IMG/VR virus record: IMGVR_UViG_3300038443_000233
Location: 64,001 to 91,886 of that record
DNA length: 27,886 bases
DNA from: a virus
Lineage: Duplodnaviria; Heunggongvirae; Uroviricota; Caudoviricetes
Strand: one strand, 5' to 3'
Positions within the stretch are counted from its first letter, which is position 1; each line of letters begins with the position of its first letter. The notes under the pieces are model-generated. The model was not told the DNA's origin, ran no database searches, and saw only the letters and a program-made list of their open reading frames with translations. The translations under genes were made by a program, and so were the position numbers. Of the stretch, positions 9,462 through 25,972 are shown one piece after another.

Positions 9462-9557
9462 TTATTCAATAGTTTTGCCACGGAACATTTCGTCACCTTT
9501 CGGATGTGGCTTATCCTCAAGTAACAGCTTCTTTAGCCAAGTCAGGAAGCGTTTCAT
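9462..9557 (-). CDS. 31-aa microprotein (not in ORF track)
   Basis: MKRFLTWLKKLLLEDKPHPKGDEMFRGKTIE; ATGA-coupled to the macrodomain stop and fills the gap exactly. Confidence 0.55.
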   Translation of the reverse strand: MKRFLTWLKKLLLEDKPHPKGDEMFRGKTIE

Positions 9558-10027
9558 TCTTGCACGTACAGCGTTGCATCGACATCATGGAAGACAGCTT
9601 GGAAGATAGCCGTCAGACGCTTTACGTCACCGCCACCCAGACCGCCACCGATCATCGGAAGGATGACTGGAGCGTTGTTACGAATAGCGAAATCACGCAC
9701 CTTCAGCATTGAATCTACGACAGCATCGTAGCTCATGTACAGCATGCCATCCCGGCCGTAGTTCTCTTGCGTGATAGCGTTCGCTACTATGACGCTGCTT
9801 TCTGGGTTCTTAGCGAGCACTACGTCGCCTAGCACGAGGCCGAAGTCGGTGTATTCATTGCGATAGGATTCGAAAGCGTACGGGTAGAGCTTCTTGACCA
9901 AAGCAGCCACACCGGAGCCCATGACGCCTTGGGCATTGCAGCCATGGACGAGGATGACTGGTTTGTTTGCTTCTTTCTTTTCGAGTGCTGCGTTGAACAG
10001 GTCGCCGGATTCGATTTTCAGTGCCAT
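9554..10027 (-). CDS. Stand-alone macrodomain protein (T4 Tk.4/TARG1/DarG-like ADP-ribose-processing family)
   Basis: SGDLF, HGCNAQGVMGSGVA, NAITQ and LPMIGGGLGGGD macrodomain loops. Confidence 0.88.
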   Translation of the reverse strand: MALKIESGDLFNAALEKKEANKPVILVHGCNAQGVMGSGVAALVKKLYPYAFESYRNEYTDFGLVLGDVVLAKNPESSVIVANAITQENYGRDGMLYMSYDAVVDSMLKVRDFAIRNNAPVILPMIGGGLGGGDVKRLTAIFQAVFHDVDATLYVQE

Positions 10028-10078
10028 TTTATTTACTGCCTTTCGTTTAACGTTCAGGGTATTGAGTAGACAGAAAGC

Positions 10079-10107
10079 ATTGTAATACTCCCTATCTACC
10101 CTGTCAA
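10079..10107 (-). promoter_or_regulatory. Sigma70-like promoter embedded in an 18-bp inverted repeat
   Basis: TTGACA (10102-10107), 17 nt, TACAAT (10079-10084); stem spans 10064-10101. Confidence 0.8.
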
Positions 10108-10114
10108 GAGCTAA

Positions 10115-11488
10115 TTACGCAACGTAGAAGCGCTTACCCTTGGCGAAGTTCGGACCTTGGTCGTACTGCTTCTTACCAGTGATTTTCGCAGCAGCACGTG
10201 CTTCATCGCGGGTAGTATAGAACTGCACACCAGCTCCTGCTAAATGGTAACGCACGCGACCGTCGAAACCTGCGTGCTTGAGCGGCAGCGGAACGGACTG
10301 GGCAACCGGAGCCTGTACGGCAGGAGCGGCAACCTTCGGAGTCGGCTTCAGCGGCGAAGGCGTCGGCTTGTTCGTCACCGGGACAGCAGGTAGTTGCACG
10401 ACAGCCGGAGCAGCAGGCTTCGGTGCAGCCGGTGCAGTGTAGCGGTCGATTTCTTCTTGGGTGAACGGCACGCCGATTTCTTCCCAATAGAGTACTCCCG
10501 TACTCGCTACCAGCTTACGGTTCACCGACTCCGACTGGATGAACAGATCGTAGTTACCATGATCCCCCGGATGCAGGCGGATGTTGTTCACCGCGGACAG
10601 GCCCAGCATGTCACGAGCTTCCTTACCAGCGAACACCTTGCCGTTCGAACGGTCACGGATCGCGATCATCTTCGACGGCGAGACACGTGCTTCAGTCTTC
10701 GTCAGTTGATAGAACGCCGAACCCTTCAGGTACTTCATGCGCTTCGTGAGGATGAAGTCACGAATCTGAATGCCATTCTGCCACGGTTCCACCACGTACA
10801 GGCTGACGGCCTTGCTGATGTCCTTCAGCTTCGACGTATCGACGTTCTGTGCGTTGGCGTAGAACACCGTCGTGGAAGTCTTACCAGCCGAGCGGGCAGC
10901 AAAGTAGCCGTCCATTGCAGCGGCCGTCTGGGTAGTCGATGCAGCCATACCAGCTTTCGAGGTTTCCCATTCTTGCACGTTGTCCAGCGGGATGCCCAGA
11001 TTCGACACGGAGCTGCGATTACCTTTCGGGACGCGCATCACGAACGTCCAGCGGCCCGTGCGTTGCAGTTGTTCGATCTTGGTACGGAGCGATTCTGCCG
11101 TGTACTTGGTCGAGTGGGCTTCTTCGCCATCCGTCGTAGCCATCACGAGGAACGAGACGTGCTGTTCATTGGCATCCGGCAGCGATTCGAACAGTTCGAT
11201 CATGTTGCCGATACCGTCGTACAGAGGCGTACCGCCCGGAGTCGGCCAGCTTGCCACCGGCTTCAGGACGTGCGGATTCGAGATGACGATCTGGCGAGTC
11301 GTTCCGTAGCCGCTGTTGCCGATGCCGATTGCGACGACGGACACGATGGTATCCTGCATCTCGCGGCTTGCTGCGTCTTTCACAGCAGTGATGGTAGCGT
11401 TGTAGTCGCTCTTAGCTGCTTCAGCGAGACGACCCATGGAGCCCGAGTGGTCGTTGACGAAGCCGATGTAGTTTTTCGATTGTGCCAT
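10115..11488 (-). CDS. vWA (MIDAS) domain protein with an unknown middle domain, Pro/Ala linker and small basic C-terminal domain
   Basis: GFVNDHSGSM (DxSxS), GGTPLYD (T) and ATTDGEE (D) form a complete MIDAS; linker APAAPKPAAP...; strong AAGGAG RBS. Confidence 0.85.
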   Translation of the reverse strand: MAQSKNYIGFVNDHSGSMGRLAEAAKSDYNATITAVKDAASREMQDTIVSVVAIGIGNSGYGTTRQIVISNPHVLKPVASWPTPGGTPLYDGIGNMIELFESLPDANEQHVSFLVMATTDGEEAHSTKYTAESLRTKIEQLQRTGRWTFVMRVPKGNRSSVSNLGIPLDNVQEWETSKAGMAASTTQTAAAMDGYFAARSAGKTSTTVFYANAQNVDTSKLKDISKAVSLYVVEPWQNGIQIRDFILTKRMKYLKGSAFYQLTKTEARVSPSKMIAIRDRSNGKVFAGKEARDMLGLSAVNNIRLHPGDHGNYDLFIQSESVNRKLVASTGVLYWEEIGVPFTQEEIDRYTAPAAPKPAAPAVVQLPAVPVTNKPTPSPLKPTPKVAAPAVQAPVAQSVPLPLKHAGFDGRVRYHLAGAGVQFYTTRDEARAAAKITGKKQYDQGPNFAKGKRFYVA

Positions 11489-11773: not shown

Positions 11774-13342
11774 TTATTGCTTCAAACGTTCCACGATGGT
11801 AGCGAACGATTTGTCACGAAGCAGGAAGCCGTCAACGAAGACAGTTTCCAGTGCACCCTCACGCTCTTCTGCGATAGACTGCTTGTCATACAGGACGAAC
11901 TTGTCGCCTTCCTTCTCGACACGCAGCAGGCCCGTTGCTGACTTCTTCATACCGTCGCCGGTAGCCGGGTCTTTCTGAATGTCCAGAGACTTGCCATACA
12001 CAACGCCCCACGTGGCCTTGACAGCCATGCCGAACGTATCACGGGTGATGTACTGGTACGTAAAGCTACCAACACCGAACACGATGTTACCGGCACTGAA
12101 GCCTTTGTCCATTAGGCGTTGCAGAATTTGTTCTGCACGTTGCAACGTAATGCTATCACCGTAGATAAGTCCGACGCGTTGGTTCAGGGTTTTGTAACCC
12201 TTGGCCGTCGTGTCGCCACCGAAGATATCCCAGAGGCATTCAACAGCGCCCTTGATTTCTGCTTCAGTCAGCAGCTTGCCAGTTTCCTTGCAAGTGTAGC
12301 CGACAACCTTACCATCAGCAGCCAATTCCAGAAGCTCGTCGTCCTTGTAGCCAGTAATGATCTTCACCGGATCACCGGAGTCCGGACGGAACACTACCTT
12401 GGCTTGGCCCAGAGCGTTCACTTTGCGAGCCAGAATTTCTTCCTTCAGCTCACGAGCGTACACAGTGATGACACGCCAGAAGTCCCACGTGTCCGACACG
12501 ATGGAGACGATACCGCTCGGATACACCTTCGTGATGAGTCGGCGGAACGTAGCCAGCTCTTCTTCACCCAGCGGTCCTTGACCGCCCATGCACATTACGG
12601 AGTGCTCTGTAGCCGGGACCGAACCGGCAACCAGCTCCTTCGTCACATCAGCGTTGTAGTACTCTTCCAGATAATCGATAGCCGGAAGCGTGTCCGTACC
12701 ACGCGAGATGAATAGGTGGGCAGCACCGCCTTTAGCAGCACCATGCCAGCCGACCATACCACGCATCGAGAAATCGTGAATCTGCCAGTCAGCGAACGCC
12801 GGATCGGAACCCGTCAGCTCGACGTACTTATTCAGGATGCGACGGTATTCGTACGTAATGGTCGCTACCGTGATTTGTTGCCACAGCTCGTCCGACAGAA
12901 CCGTTTCGAGGTAGTTCGTCAGCCAGAAGAATTGCGGCAGCGTGTTACGGATCGTCAGGAATGGAACCTTGATATCCACACGCGAACCTTCCGGCAGAGC
13001 CTTGATGATGATCGGCAGATAGCCGAGGTCATGCAGGGCAGCGATGTGATCGACTCGTACCGAGTCTGGGCCGAGGAAGTTGTCGCAGCGGCGTTTGTAC
13101 TCAGCGATCACTTCGTCCTTCGGGCGCTTGAAGAAGTGTTCGTTCCATGCTTCGATCAGGAACTCTTTCACGAAACCTTGCAGACCGACGAACACTACCT
13201 TGTTGTCGTACAGGTCGCCCATCTTAGCGTGGCTGGCCGAACGTGCCGTCAGGTTGGAATACACGTACTCCGTGCCTTCCGGGTACTGATCGATGTGGCC
13301 CAGCTTGTACGAGTCGAGGATCAGGTGCGGTTTTACTTTCAT
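11774..13342 (-). CDS. nadV: NAMPT-family phosphoribosyltransferase, probably Namat of NARP1
   Basis: Real start ATG 13342 (AAGGAG RBS), 522 aa. Motifs DSYKLGH, YSNLTAR, HDFSMRG, SVPATEHSVM, SIVSDTWD, FRPDSGDP, GLIYGDSI, VFGVGS, TRDTFGMAVKAT. Confidence 0.95.
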   Translation of the reverse strand: MKVKPHLILDSYKLGHIDQYPEGTEYVYSNLTARSASHAKMGDLYDNKVVFVGLQGFVKEFLIEAWNEHFFKRPKDEVIAEYKRRCDNFLGPDSVRVDHIAALHDLGYLPIIIKALPEGSRVDIKVPFLTIRNTLPQFFWLTNYLETVLSDELWQQITVATITYEYRRILNKYVELTGSDPAFADWQIHDFSMRGMVGWHGAAKGGAAHLFISRGTDTLPAIDYLEEYYNADVTKELVAGSVPATEHSVMCMGGQGPLGEEELATFRRLITKVYPSGIVSIVSDTWDFWRVITVYARELKEEILARKVNALGQAKVVFRPDSGDPVKIITGYKDDELLELAADGKVVGYTCKETGKLLTEAEIKGAVECLWDIFGGDTTAKGYKTLNQRVGLIYGDSITLQRAEQILQRLMDKGFSAGNIVFGVGSFTYQYITRDTFGMAVKATWGVVYGKSLDIQKDPATGDGMKKSATGLLRVEKEGDKFVLYDKQSIAEEREGALETVFVDGFLLRDKSFATIVERLKQ

Positions 13343-13356
13343 TGTTGTTCTCCTTG

Positions 13357-13587
13357 TTAGTCGATGATTACCAGCTTGCCATCGCTGTCGAGCGGGAGGT
13401 CCAAAGACCTGTCGATCCATTTGTGCAGTTTGACGCCGTTTTCCGTGATGTCCAGCAGGTGTCCAGCAGACCACGGCGTACCGGAATCATCCACGACGAC
13501 AACGGATACGGCTTTACCCTTCGGTACGAGCTTAACCTTCAGAGTCTTCTCGACTGGGGTGGCTTGTTTGAACTCTTCGATTTTCAT
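13357..13587 (-). CDS. Hypothetical protein
   Basis: Start ATG 13587 with AAGGAG RBS (MKIEEF...), 76 aa. Confidence 0.7.
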   Translation of the reverse strand: MKIEEFKQATPVEKTLKVKLVPKGKAVSVVVVDDSGTPWSAGHLLDITENGVKLHKWIDRSLDLPLDSDGKLVIID

Positions 13588-13610
13588 TATTTTCTCCTTG
13601 GTTGTGTTGG

Positions 13611-13826
13611 TTAGGCTACGATCTTGGTCCACTTAGCAGTACCAGTCTCCGGATCGCAAGCGTAGTTGGCATCGCCCACATCGTCGTACACGAAGAATTC
13701 TCCGTTGCCTTCTTCGACTTTGTAAATCTTGCCGAATGTCAGATCATGGATGTCCGGGTTGTTACGGTTCGTTTTGCTGTCATGGAAGACCACCTTATCA
13801 CCGCTTTCCAGTTTCTTCTTTGCCAT
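13611..13826 (-). CDS. Hypothetical small beta-rich protein
   Basis: 71 aa, AAGGAG RBS; DLTFGKIY...DDVGDANY is similar to the N-terminal half of 17042-17416. Confidence 0.7.
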   Translation of the reverse strand: MAKKKLESGDKVVFHDSKTNRNNPDIHDLTFGKIYKVEEGNGEFFVYDDVGDANYACDPETGTAKWTKIVA

Positions 13827-13849
13827 TTTACTCTCCTTGGTAGTGGTTC

Positions 13850-14674
13850 TTACAGTTTGATTACTTTGCCGGATGCGATTGCGTCTTTCGCTTTCTGCCC
13901 GACAGGATTAGCAGTGTACACAACATCGATCAGGTTGTCAAACACTTCAGGACCAGCACTGAAGATACCGTGCGTTACGTACAGCATGATCTTTCCATCG
14001 GTGTACGGGCGCAGCACTTTCGCCAGTTCCGTGAACGTACGCCCACCGTCGCAGATGTCATCCACGATCAGGAAGTCGTGGTCACTATCATGATTGTGCC
14101 CTTCCGTGCTGATACGCGTCTCCAGAATCTTGCCGGTGGAGAGTTCCCGGACCTTTTCAGCTTGAATCAGGCCAGCGAACCCGCCCTCTTGAGCAAACTT
14201 GCGAGCCTTCTTCGAAGCGCCAGCGTCAGGAGCAACGATGACAGTGTTACCAGCGTTCACAGCACGGGCAACGCGGCTTGCTGCGAAGTCTTGCGTGAAA
14301 ACGTCAACGTTGTCTAACAGTGCCGGGGTCACATCCGAGTGCGGGTCCACGACGCAAACACGTTCGAACTTCAGCGAATTGATGAAGTCAGCTAACACCT
14401 TGATAGACAGACTCTCCCCCGGATTGCATACACGGTCCTGACGAGCGTACGGTACGTACGGCATGAATAATTTCAGCTTGACGCCGGGAAGATCACGGCG
14501 GATGGCGTCCGCCAGCAGTGCCAGATCGAACAGGTCGGAGTTCGACTCAAATGCGAGGTTCAGTGTGACATCATCTTCGAGCCACACCGGGGTCTTCACA
14601 CGAATGCAGCTTTCGCCAGCAGGGAACGTGGTCTTGGTAAGGGCGCTATCGTAGCCAACGATACTTACGCTCAT
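13850..14674 (-). CDS. prs: PRPP-synthetase-like pyrophosphokinase, probably Adps of NARP1
   Basis: Real start ATG 14674 (GGGAG RBS), 274 aa. Motifs FPAGE, MPYVPYARQDR, DPHSD, APDAGA, KVRELSTG, IVDDICDGGRTF, YVTHGIFS. Confidence 0.93.
   Translation of the reverse strand: MSVSIVGYDSALTKTTFPAGESCIRVKTPVWLEDDVTLNLAFESNSDLFDLALLADAIRRDLPGVKLKLFMPYVPYARQDRVCNPGESLSIKVLADFINSLKFERVCVVDPHSDVTPALLDNVDVFTQDFAASRVARAVNAGNTVIVAPDAGASKKARKFAQEGGFAGLIQAEKVRELSTGKILETRISTEGHNHDSDHDFLIVDDICDGGRTFTELAKVLRPYTDGKIMLYVTHGIFSAGPEVFDNLIDVVYTANPVGQKAKDAIASGKVIKL
13913..13941 (-). promoter_or_regulatory. Possible internal sigma70 promoter in the 3' end of the prs-like gene, upstream of the NAMPT-like gene
   Basis: TTGACA (13936-13941), 17 nt, TACACT (13913-13918). 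It lies in coding sequence, so it could be chance. Confidence 0.4.
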
Positions 14675-14675
14675 C

Positions 14676-14885
14676 TTACACTCCCGCACGCAGCGAGCGA
14701 ACGAACGACAAACCGGGGATGGTAGTGTAACCGTCGAATACGTCACGCACGCCTTTCACATCCGCATATTTTCCAGCACGGATGCAGGAACGGGTTACGC
14801 CGGTCTTATTGTCCCAGCGGTAGTTAGGGTTCAGGCACCAGCCCGGAATGAATTTACCTTCACGTTGGTTACGGCTCTTGCTCAT
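14676..14885 (-). CDS. Hypothetical basic protein
   Basis: 69 aa, AAGGAG RBS. Confidence 0.7.
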   Translation of the reverse strand: MSKSRNQREGKFIPGWCLNPNYRWDNKTGVTRSCIRAGKYADVKGVRDVFDGYTTIPGLSFVRSLRAGV

Positions 14886-16750: not shown

Positions 16751-16788
16751 AAAAGAAAAGGCCAGTGTACCCGAAGATACGCTGGCCT
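16751..16788 (-). terminator. Rho-independent terminator after the glutaredoxin gene
   Basis: AGGCCAGCGTATC-TTCG-GGTACACTGGCCT followed by TTTCTTTT (cUUCGg loop). Confidence 0.8.
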
Positions 16789-16793
16789 GTCAA
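16764..16793 (-). promoter_or_regulatory. Sigma70-like promoter superimposed on the terminator hairpin
   Basis: TTGACA (16788-16793), 18 nt, TACACT (16764-16769). Confidence 0.6.
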
Positions 16794-17416: not shown

Positions 17417-17448
17417 CTGGTTCTCCTTTGGTTGGTAAGAAAGGCTAC

Positions 17449-17477
17449 ATAGTAGCCCTCCTTACGATTGGTGTCAA
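17449..17477 (-). promoter_or_regulatory. Sigma70-like promoter with -10 at the apex of a 14-bp inverted repeat
   Basis: TTGACA (17472-17477), 17 nt, TACTAT (17449-17454); stem spans 17435-17465. Confidence 0.8.
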
Positions 17478-20262: not shown

Positions 20263-20284
20263 AAAAACGGGGCCGAAGCCCCGT
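20263..20284 (-). terminator. Terminator-like cUUCGg hairpin in the nrdB leader
   Basis: ACGGGGC-TTCG-GCCCCGT followed by TTTTC. Confidence 0.7.
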
Positions 20285-20296
20285 GGTTGGACGCCT

Positions 20297-20325
20297 ATTA
20301 TAGCATAGGTAGCCTTACTTATCAA
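20297..20325 (-). promoter_or_regulatory. Sigma70-like promoter with extended -10 for nrdBA
   Basis: TTGATA (20320-20325), 17 nt, TGcTATAAT (-10 at 20297-20302). Confidence 0.75.
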
Positions 20326-25894: not shown

Positions 25895-25972
25895 TGGTAG
25901 GTCGTGTAGGACTTGAACCTACGACATCGGAGGTAGAAGCTCCGTGCTCTAATCCGTCTGAGCTAACGACCC
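25895..25972 (-). tRNA. trnR-UCU: tRNA-Arg (anticodon UCU), encoded CCA
   Basis: GGGTCGT/ACGACCT acceptor stem, GCTC/GAGC D stem with A20, CGGAG-CTTCTAC-CTCCG anticodon arm, GTAGG-TTCAAGT-CCTAC T arm, ACCA end; 78 nt. Confidence 0.95.

Follow-up and report, generated by a model that had tools for sequence, protein, structure and literature searches.

A candidate promoter/stem-loop cassette, conserved as RNA structure, upstream of a macrodomain gene in a family of uncultivated soil phages

The sequence ahead of a macrodomain gene in an uncultivated soil phage combines a near-consensus promoter with a long hairpin, whose arms are the promoter spacer and the bases at and beyond the end of the -10 hexamer. 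We consider it probable that this site is a composite promoter/stem-loop cassette of the PeSL (promoter-early stem-loop) type. Compensatory changes among relatives, together with G.U pairs that are never replaced by A.C, constitute clean comparative evidence that selection acts on the stem as RNA rather than on a DNA palindrome.

All positions refer to the window, the 27,886-nt stretch of DNA that was analysed, unless a genome position is named. This window makes up the right-hand 28 kb of the source genome, which is complete at 91,886 bp and has terminal repeats. The sequence was found in soil and rhizosphere DNA metagenome runs only, with no RNA run among the runs listed, and a blastn search of the locus against GenBank phages returned no match.

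Layout of the promoter and hairpin

The minus strand from 10107 to 10064 reads TTGACA GGGTAGATAGGGAGTATT AC AATGCTTTCTGTCTACTC, in agreement with the first-pass annotation of this DNA, and all 18 positions pair formally, 13 as Watson-Crick pairs and 5 as G-T pairs. A promoter scan scored the site at 11/12 as a sigma70-type promoter, TTGACA-17-TACAAT. The parts of the locus, with the evidence for each, are as follows.

10115..11488 (-): upstream gene of 457 aa, stop codon TAA, kept in 9/9 relatives (ORF list; tblastn synteny)
10102..10107 (-): -35 hexamer TTGACA (promoter scan; CTTGAC invariant in orthologues)
10085..10101 (-): hairpin 5' arm GGGTAGATAGGGAGTAT, the entire 17-nt promoter spacer (folds, pair counts)
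10079..10084 (-): -10 hexamer TACAAT (promoter scan; sequence)
10064..10080 (-): hairpin 3' arm ATGCTTTCTGTCTACTC, covering the tail of the -10 plus the start-site region (folds; covariation of the two arms)
10070..10073 (-): expected transcription start, about 7 nt past the -10 (from the usual sigma70 geometry)
10039..10044 (-): Shine-Dalgarno-like GAAAGG, 11 nt ahead of the ATG at 10027 (sequence)
9554..10027 (-): macrodomain gene, 157 aa, predicted to be served by the promoter (Pfam Macro, E 5.5e-5, 23.5 bits, cut-off 22)

The TTGACA lies eight bases past the TAA of the 457-aa gene, and the hairpin begins 13 nt past it. In the -10 hexamer, the loop consists of TACA, and the 3' arm begins with AT as its first two pairs and runs on for about 15 nt; the stem thus spans the whole spacer, the -10 and the start-site region, just as initially described. 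A 51-nt leader containing the GAAAGG separates TACAAT from the macrodomain ATG, which is 80 nt past the start of the -35, compared with 56-62 nt in the sister cassettes described below.

This geometry bears on which transcripts could fold. RNA begun at the expected start would carry just the last 7-9 nt of the 3' arm, so the full stem would form only in RNA that comes from upstream. The first-pass annotation had likewise assigned the full stem to read-through RNA and no more than the 3' arm to the promoter's own transcript. Since just 7-9 nt of that arm would be present, we dropped the idea that it masks the Shine-Dalgarno sequence in the primary transcript.

The stem is followed by AAUACCCU, which contains no U-tract, and its top is weak, being rich in A/U and G.U pairs; it is therefore not a classical intrinsic terminator. 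Efficient intrinsic termination at this stem is unlikely, a terminator scan did not list it, and the classical terminator reading of the focal copy is ruled out by the missing U-tract and the missing G+C-rich stem. An outer pairing seen in the centroid fold, CAGGGTA/TACCCTG, was also discarded, as it is not kept in two of the relatives (G001 and G002). An Rfam search of the window gave one tRNA and nothing at the hairpin.

We also noted that a G after TACAAT creates an ATG, opening an 8-codon ORF (MLSVYSIP) in the 3' arm at 10054-10080 (-) with GGGAG ahead of it in the 5' arm. This mini-ORF is kept in G001 (MLPVYSTP) and absent in G004 and L138, and so is probably incidental.

Genes around the hairpin

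The Pfam match sustains the macrodomain label of the downstream gene, and its protein has 128 relatives in viral contigs. The vWA label first given to the upstream gene fared worse: the 457-aa protein has no Pfam match even at E 10 and no PDB sequence match, and the label's sole trace is a partial tblastn match that falls on an ambiguous annotation. The protein matches phrog_26613 (unknown function) and, at 44% identity, a Caulobacter phage Cr30 protein annotated as hypothetical. After more distant homologues of this gene come plain terminator hairpins.

Farther upstream, at 11774-14746 (-), the window holds a NAMPT-like gene (Pfam NAPRTase at 4.7e-34, plus NAMPT_N) and a PRPP-synthetase-like gene (Pribosyltran_N, Pribosyl_synth). 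This pair, which has the same orientation as the macrodomain gene and is conserved in 9/9 relatives, looks like an NAD+ salvage or reconstitution pair of a NARP1-like kind.

The stem folds as RNA and is equivalent on both strands as DNA

A 2-nt loop is sterically impossible, and RNAfold accordingly opens the apical pair, giving a stem of 17 bp with a UACA loop. The 18-bp stem of the first-pass annotation is thus correct as formal pairing; it folds as 17 bp, of which 13-16 bp are conserved in relatives. The 87-nt intergenic RNA reached -25.1 kcal/mol (z -3.66; 1/200 shuffles as good by RNAfold), and a 61-nt piece reached -22.2 kcal/mol (z -3.87; 0/200 shuffles as good). The antisense strand under RNA energies was no better than shuffles (z -0.64). 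Under DNA parameters both strands folded weakly, at -6.7 kcal/mol for the sense and -6.6 kcal/mol for the antisense (z -1.8 versus -1.7). As the strand bias appears under RNA energies only and the strands are equal as DNA, we conclude that the asymmetry is a property of RNA. It had originally been ascribed to either the non-template DNA strand or RNA, and only the second of these is borne out.

These values weigh on the proposal that the hairpin is a DNA-level device, a non-template hairpin or cruciform that would tune melting or the response to supercoiling in the manner of phage N4 promoters. Such a device would suit a stem centred on the -10 with arms flanking the melting region. We nevertheless regard it as very unlikely: the hairpin is weak under DNA energies and lacks strand bias, its equal DNA folds disfavour a structure in the non-template strand, and the A.C mismatches on the opposite strand disfavour a cruciform. 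In addition, a search for a T7-type, single-subunit phage polymerase gene (PF00940), which an N4-like reading would lead one to expect, gave no match, although the control of that search was weak.

On neither strand of the 91,886-bp genome is there a longer uninterrupted stem than the focal one; the next reach 15, 14 and 14 bp, and in shuffled genomes single long stems reach 12-14 bp.

The arms covary among relatives

Four whole relatives of 88-92 kb (G001-G004) were retrieved by a macrodomain protein search, and four more contigs (L138, L139, L152 and L154) by the DNA pattern of the 5' half only, TTGAC..TAGGNAG..TACAAT. Together with the focal genome (G000), these made an alignment of nine sequences. 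The gene order NAMPT-like gene, 457-aa gene, hairpin-promoter, macrodomain gene is kept in 9/9 (tblastn synteny), and TACAAT is kept in G001-G004, which were found through the macrodomain protein and hence independently of the DNA pattern.

Comparison with relatives had been put forward by the first-pass annotation, and it showed that the arms keep pairing. Across the nine sequences, 88.9% of cells are standard pairs, as opposed to 33-48% after a shift of the 3' partners by 1-3 columns, and the covariation score is 0.368, as opposed to 0.04-0.10 when shifted. None of 500 shuffles reached these pairing and covariation values, although the orthologues are few and related, which inflates such p-values. 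Five pairs are altered on both sides (for example U-A/C-G, A-U/U-A/G-C and A-U/U-G/U-A/G-U). When the five sequences that are independent of the DNA pattern were considered, 90.5% of cells were paired. Among the cells of the 14 central pairs, 22 are G.U and none is A.C; two G/A cells beside the loop are the sole non-pairs. Conservation is confined to the central 13-16 bp, with the apical pair present in 1/9 sequences and the two basal pairs in 5-6/9. As a control, 1 of 79 unrelated metagenome matches to the 5'-half pattern has a stem of at least 8 bp at the -10; among the 80 loci listed, this metagenome scan contained no further orthologues.

Selection on the single-strand structure of the sense strand, which had been proposed from the focal sequence, is therefore upheld by the compensatory changes and by the consistent use of G.U in place of A.C in the nine orthologues, as well as by the wider class described below. 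The same data leave little room for a palindromic operator through which a dimeric DNA-binding regulator would shut the promoter. Inverted repeats over the -10 are in a typical operator position, but the arm sequences differ between cassettes and covary between orthologues instead of being conserved as sequence, and the asymmetries are exclusively G.T on one strand, which a protein reading the duplex would not select; we consider an operator most improbable. It is just as improbable that the complementarity arose by chance and has no function. Single stems of 12-14 bp do occur in shuffled genomes, but the focal stem is the longest in its genome, shows compensatory changes in nine relatives and belongs to an enriched class.

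What follows the hairpin directly is variable. It is the macrodomain gene in G000-G002; a stretch of 310-600 nt with one or more small ORFs, starting MIKLTLVS, in G003, G004 and L138; and, in L139, L152 and L154, a further promoter followed by an HNH-like gene. Given these differences in gene content, the cassette's downstream edge is a junction for gene gain and loss. The promoter of the HNH-like gene (MNEIFEYDETSPSG..) is TTGCAA-17-TATACT, at L139:4440-4520 and equivalent positions in L152 and L154, and a hairpin in the leader of this gene, CTACTACCT/AGGTAGTAG, covers its Shine-Dalgarno sequence.

A class of promoter/stem-loop cassettes

The focal site is not alone. The pattern TTGAC[ATG]-N16-18-TAnnnT occurs 26 times in the focal genome, and 6 of the 26 carry uninterrupted stems of at least 8 bp centred on the -10, a property of about 3% of random positions. 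Four relatives have stems of at least 8 bp at 3-5 of 22-28 promoter sites each, which with the focal genome gives 3-6 per genome; hairpin-bearing promoters were also put at 6-8 per genome. The promoter pattern itself was far above its reversed control in the relatives (for example 23 versus 1 in G001). At least four orthologous cassette families could be traced across genomes.

Family 1, the focal cassette: GATAGGNAG / CUNCCUAUC
Family 2: the cassette that follows the ribonucleotide reductase gene, at 17435-17477 of the window, with 14-16 bp
Family 3: GTAGGAAG / CTTCCTAC
Family 4: GTACGTAG / CTACGTAC

Two sister cassettes in the window illustrate the range of stems.

17435..17477 (-): cassette after the ribonucleotide reductase gene, with TTGACA and a 14-bp stem GTAAGGAGGGCTAC-TAT-GTAGCCTTTCTTAC centred on a TACTAT -10
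16751..16793 (-): cassette of the same geometry, with terminator GGCCAG..UUCG..CUGGCC + UUUUCUUUU over TTGACA-18-TACACT

The first folds at -20.3 kcal/mol (z -4.2) and has orthologues in G001, G003 and G004; the second, at -28.8 kcal/mol (z -5.1), is a canonical UUCG terminator with a U-tract. Other sister cassettes have stems of just 8-9 bp. Several cassettes share their hexamers, arms of the GTAGG/GTAAG type and a ACCAACCAAGGAG leader, and differ in their stems; the focal leader is different. The site had at first been seen as a special device of the macrodomain gene, a view that gives way here to one member of a family-wide class.

Mismatches across the class were counted in stems found by treating G.T and A.C alike, which leaves the count unbiased. 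Promoter stems contained 31 G.T and 2 A.C, compared with 50:50 in random stems (p 7e-8). Correcting for purine-rich 5' arms and pyrimidine-rich 3' arms raised the expected G.T share to 0.61 and gave p 4e-5; as orthologues are not independent, both values are generous. The focal genome alone had 8 G.T and 0 A.C (p 0.027).

Placement of the stems is similarly constrained. In the five genomes, 15/15 stems of at least 9 bp come directly after an ORF on the same strand that is at least 78 aa long and whose stop codon lies no more than 24 nt before the -35. Frequently this stop is the TGA within TTGACA, and the next ATG comes 56-80 nt past the -35. With the threshold lowered to 7 bp, stems were present at 19/36 promoters with such an upstream gene versus 7/31 without (Fisher p 0.014). 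An exception is one weak 8-bp stem, which has no long upstream gene and lies in a divergent promoter region. Where the -10 falls with respect to the loop varies between families and even between orthologues, from which it follows that the hairpin does not present particular -10 bases. Both this variable register and the occurrence of long stems solely after same-strand genes speak further against a DNA-level device.

Several other arrangements were observed in the same genomes. Outside the window, at G000:C1 19650-19700 (+; 19663), a terminator hairpin with a U-tract, AACCCC-TTGAC-GGGGTT, encloses the -35 of a promoter-like site, which is another register of terminator/promoter overlap. At 20270-20325 (-) in the window, a near-consensus promoter-like TTGATA-17-TGcTATAAT lies inside the end of an ORF, with a canonical terminator, CCACGGGGCTTCGGCCCCGTTTTT, within 15 nt. 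Taken together with the terminators after distant homologues of the 457-aa gene, the cases of terminators over promoters indicate that this phage family habitually overlays RNA 3'-end structures on promoters.

Two further repeated elements are of other kinds. At G000:C1 24849, 26850 and 27932 (+), outside the window, (A)GCTAATCAGC, a hairpin with a variable stem of 10-13 bp and TCGGAT precede small genes; this cassette could be another type of promoter or terminator. A second promoter class has a sequence-conserved, partly palindromic spacer, ..(G)TACGTAGTGTA(C/A)(A/G)AT, at the following places.

Second promoter class: window 26010 (-); genome 37312, 38096, 38665, 48629 and 55786 (+); several per relative

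One copy, CACTACGTAGTG, precedes the tRNA at 25898-25972. Since sequence and not structure is conserved here, the class may consist of regulator sites or of extended promoter elements.

Proposed function

We propose that the focal cassette would act at two levels. In DNA, TTGACA-17-TACAAT would be a host sigma70-type promoter for the macrodomain gene. In RNA, the spacer is complementary to the initially transcribed bases, so that read-through RNA from the upstream operon (the PRPP-synthetase-like, NAMPT-like and 457-aa genes) would fold the 17-bp hairpin. The hairpin would most likely set or protect the 3' boundary of the upstream, putatively NAD-salvage, message, possibly because it attenuates read-through or makes it pause, or because after cleavage it stops 3' exonucleases; re-initiation at the promoter would then serve the downstream gene. 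The macrodomain gene would in that case be expressed both with and independently of its NAD-salvage neighbours.

The position of the -10 at the apex can be understood as a matter of packing, because a promoter has letters free to serve as arms only in its spacer and its initially transcribed region. This would explain why the stems sit on the -10.

A related proposal, raised for RNase III in the first-pass annotation, is that the hairpin is a site for RNase III or another double-strand RNA nuclease that cuts read-through RNA and parts the macrodomain cistron from the upstream operon, in the manner of the T7 early-region sites; it seems to us unlikely. It agrees with a full stem confined to read-through RNA and with the stem itself, 17 bp, rich in G.U, free of a U-tract and conserved over 13-16 bp. 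Classical RNase III substrates, however, extend over roughly two helical turns, and the focal stem falls below this; sister cassettes of the same design have just 8-9 bp, and no RNase III gene was found in the phage genome. Judged by stem length, RNase III-type processing is plausible for the members of 14-17 bp, not for those of 8-9 bp.

It is doubtful, though conceivable, that the hairpin discriminates transcript isoforms, such that only the upstream NAD-salvage RNA folds and is cut or ended there, while the macrodomain message would have the same short leader either way. If so, a promoter spacer would double as half of an RNA processing signal, in a design that recurs across a soil phage family and that, unlike classical terminators, has no U-tract.

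Returning to the composite cassette that we favour, one practical consequence would be for annotation: hairpins over phage promoters may be better read as boundaries of upstream transcripts than as operators. Nothing in the findings on the focal hairpin overturns current understanding.

Comparison with known systems

The hairpin promoters of phage N4, which are used by the virion RNA polymerase, resemble the focal site in having a hairpin at the promoter, centred near -12. N4 hairpins have 5-7 bp and a 3-nt loop, form in template-strand DNA, lack sigma70 hexamers and are read by a phage polymerase. The focal hairpin instead belongs to the sense strand, with a bias specific to RNA, and sigma70 hexamers are present.

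The early RNase III hairpins of T7 and T3 (such as R1.1) are likewise intergenic, without a U-tract, and located in polycistronic phage mRNA just before the next cistron. The T7 sites are longer, have internal loops and do not overlap a host promoter, and the focal hairpin differs from them in these respects. Intrinsic terminators that overlap promoters offer another parallel, one to which the 16793 cassette conforms exactly, with its UUCG hairpin and U-tract in TTGACA-18-TACACT; the focal hairpin departs from it in having neither a G+C-rich stem nor a U-tract.

The closest correspondence is with PeSLs, which are composite promoter/terminator cassettes of the T4-type phages RB49/phi1, T4/PST and KVP40/nt-1 (Arbiol et al. 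2010, PMC2839356; PMC4122927). One PeSL stem-loop terminated transcription in a lacZ reporter, and PeSLs mark sites of modular shuffling (PMC2839356); further sets have other stem consensus sequences (Comeau et al. 2014, PMC4122927). Several differences are apparent. The present cassettes come from a 92-kb uncultivated soil phage that is not T4-type; a search for the Gp23 capsid protein in the focal phage genome gave no match, though the control of that search was weak. PeSL copies share sequence over about 70-100 bp, and their stems share a GN-loop-CN or A3-4G3-loop-C3T3-4 consensus (PMC4122927), which the stems of the focal family do not; here the stems, up to 17 bp and rich in A/U and G.U, differ between copies and are kept by compensation, not identity. 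The focal copy also lacks a U-tract, and its promoter is a predicted one.

The likenesses concern the design as a whole. Both kinds of cassette combine a near-consensus sigma70-type promoter with a stem-loop lying between the -35 and -10 hexamers or over the -10, and carry the Shine-Dalgarno sequence and ATG of the following gene at their 3' end. Both occupy short intergenic gaps after same-strand genes, occur in several copies per genome and are sited at points of varying gene content among relatives. Composite promoter/stem-loop cassettes, described until now for T4-type phages, would thus probably extend to uncultivated 90-kb soil phages of an unrelated family.
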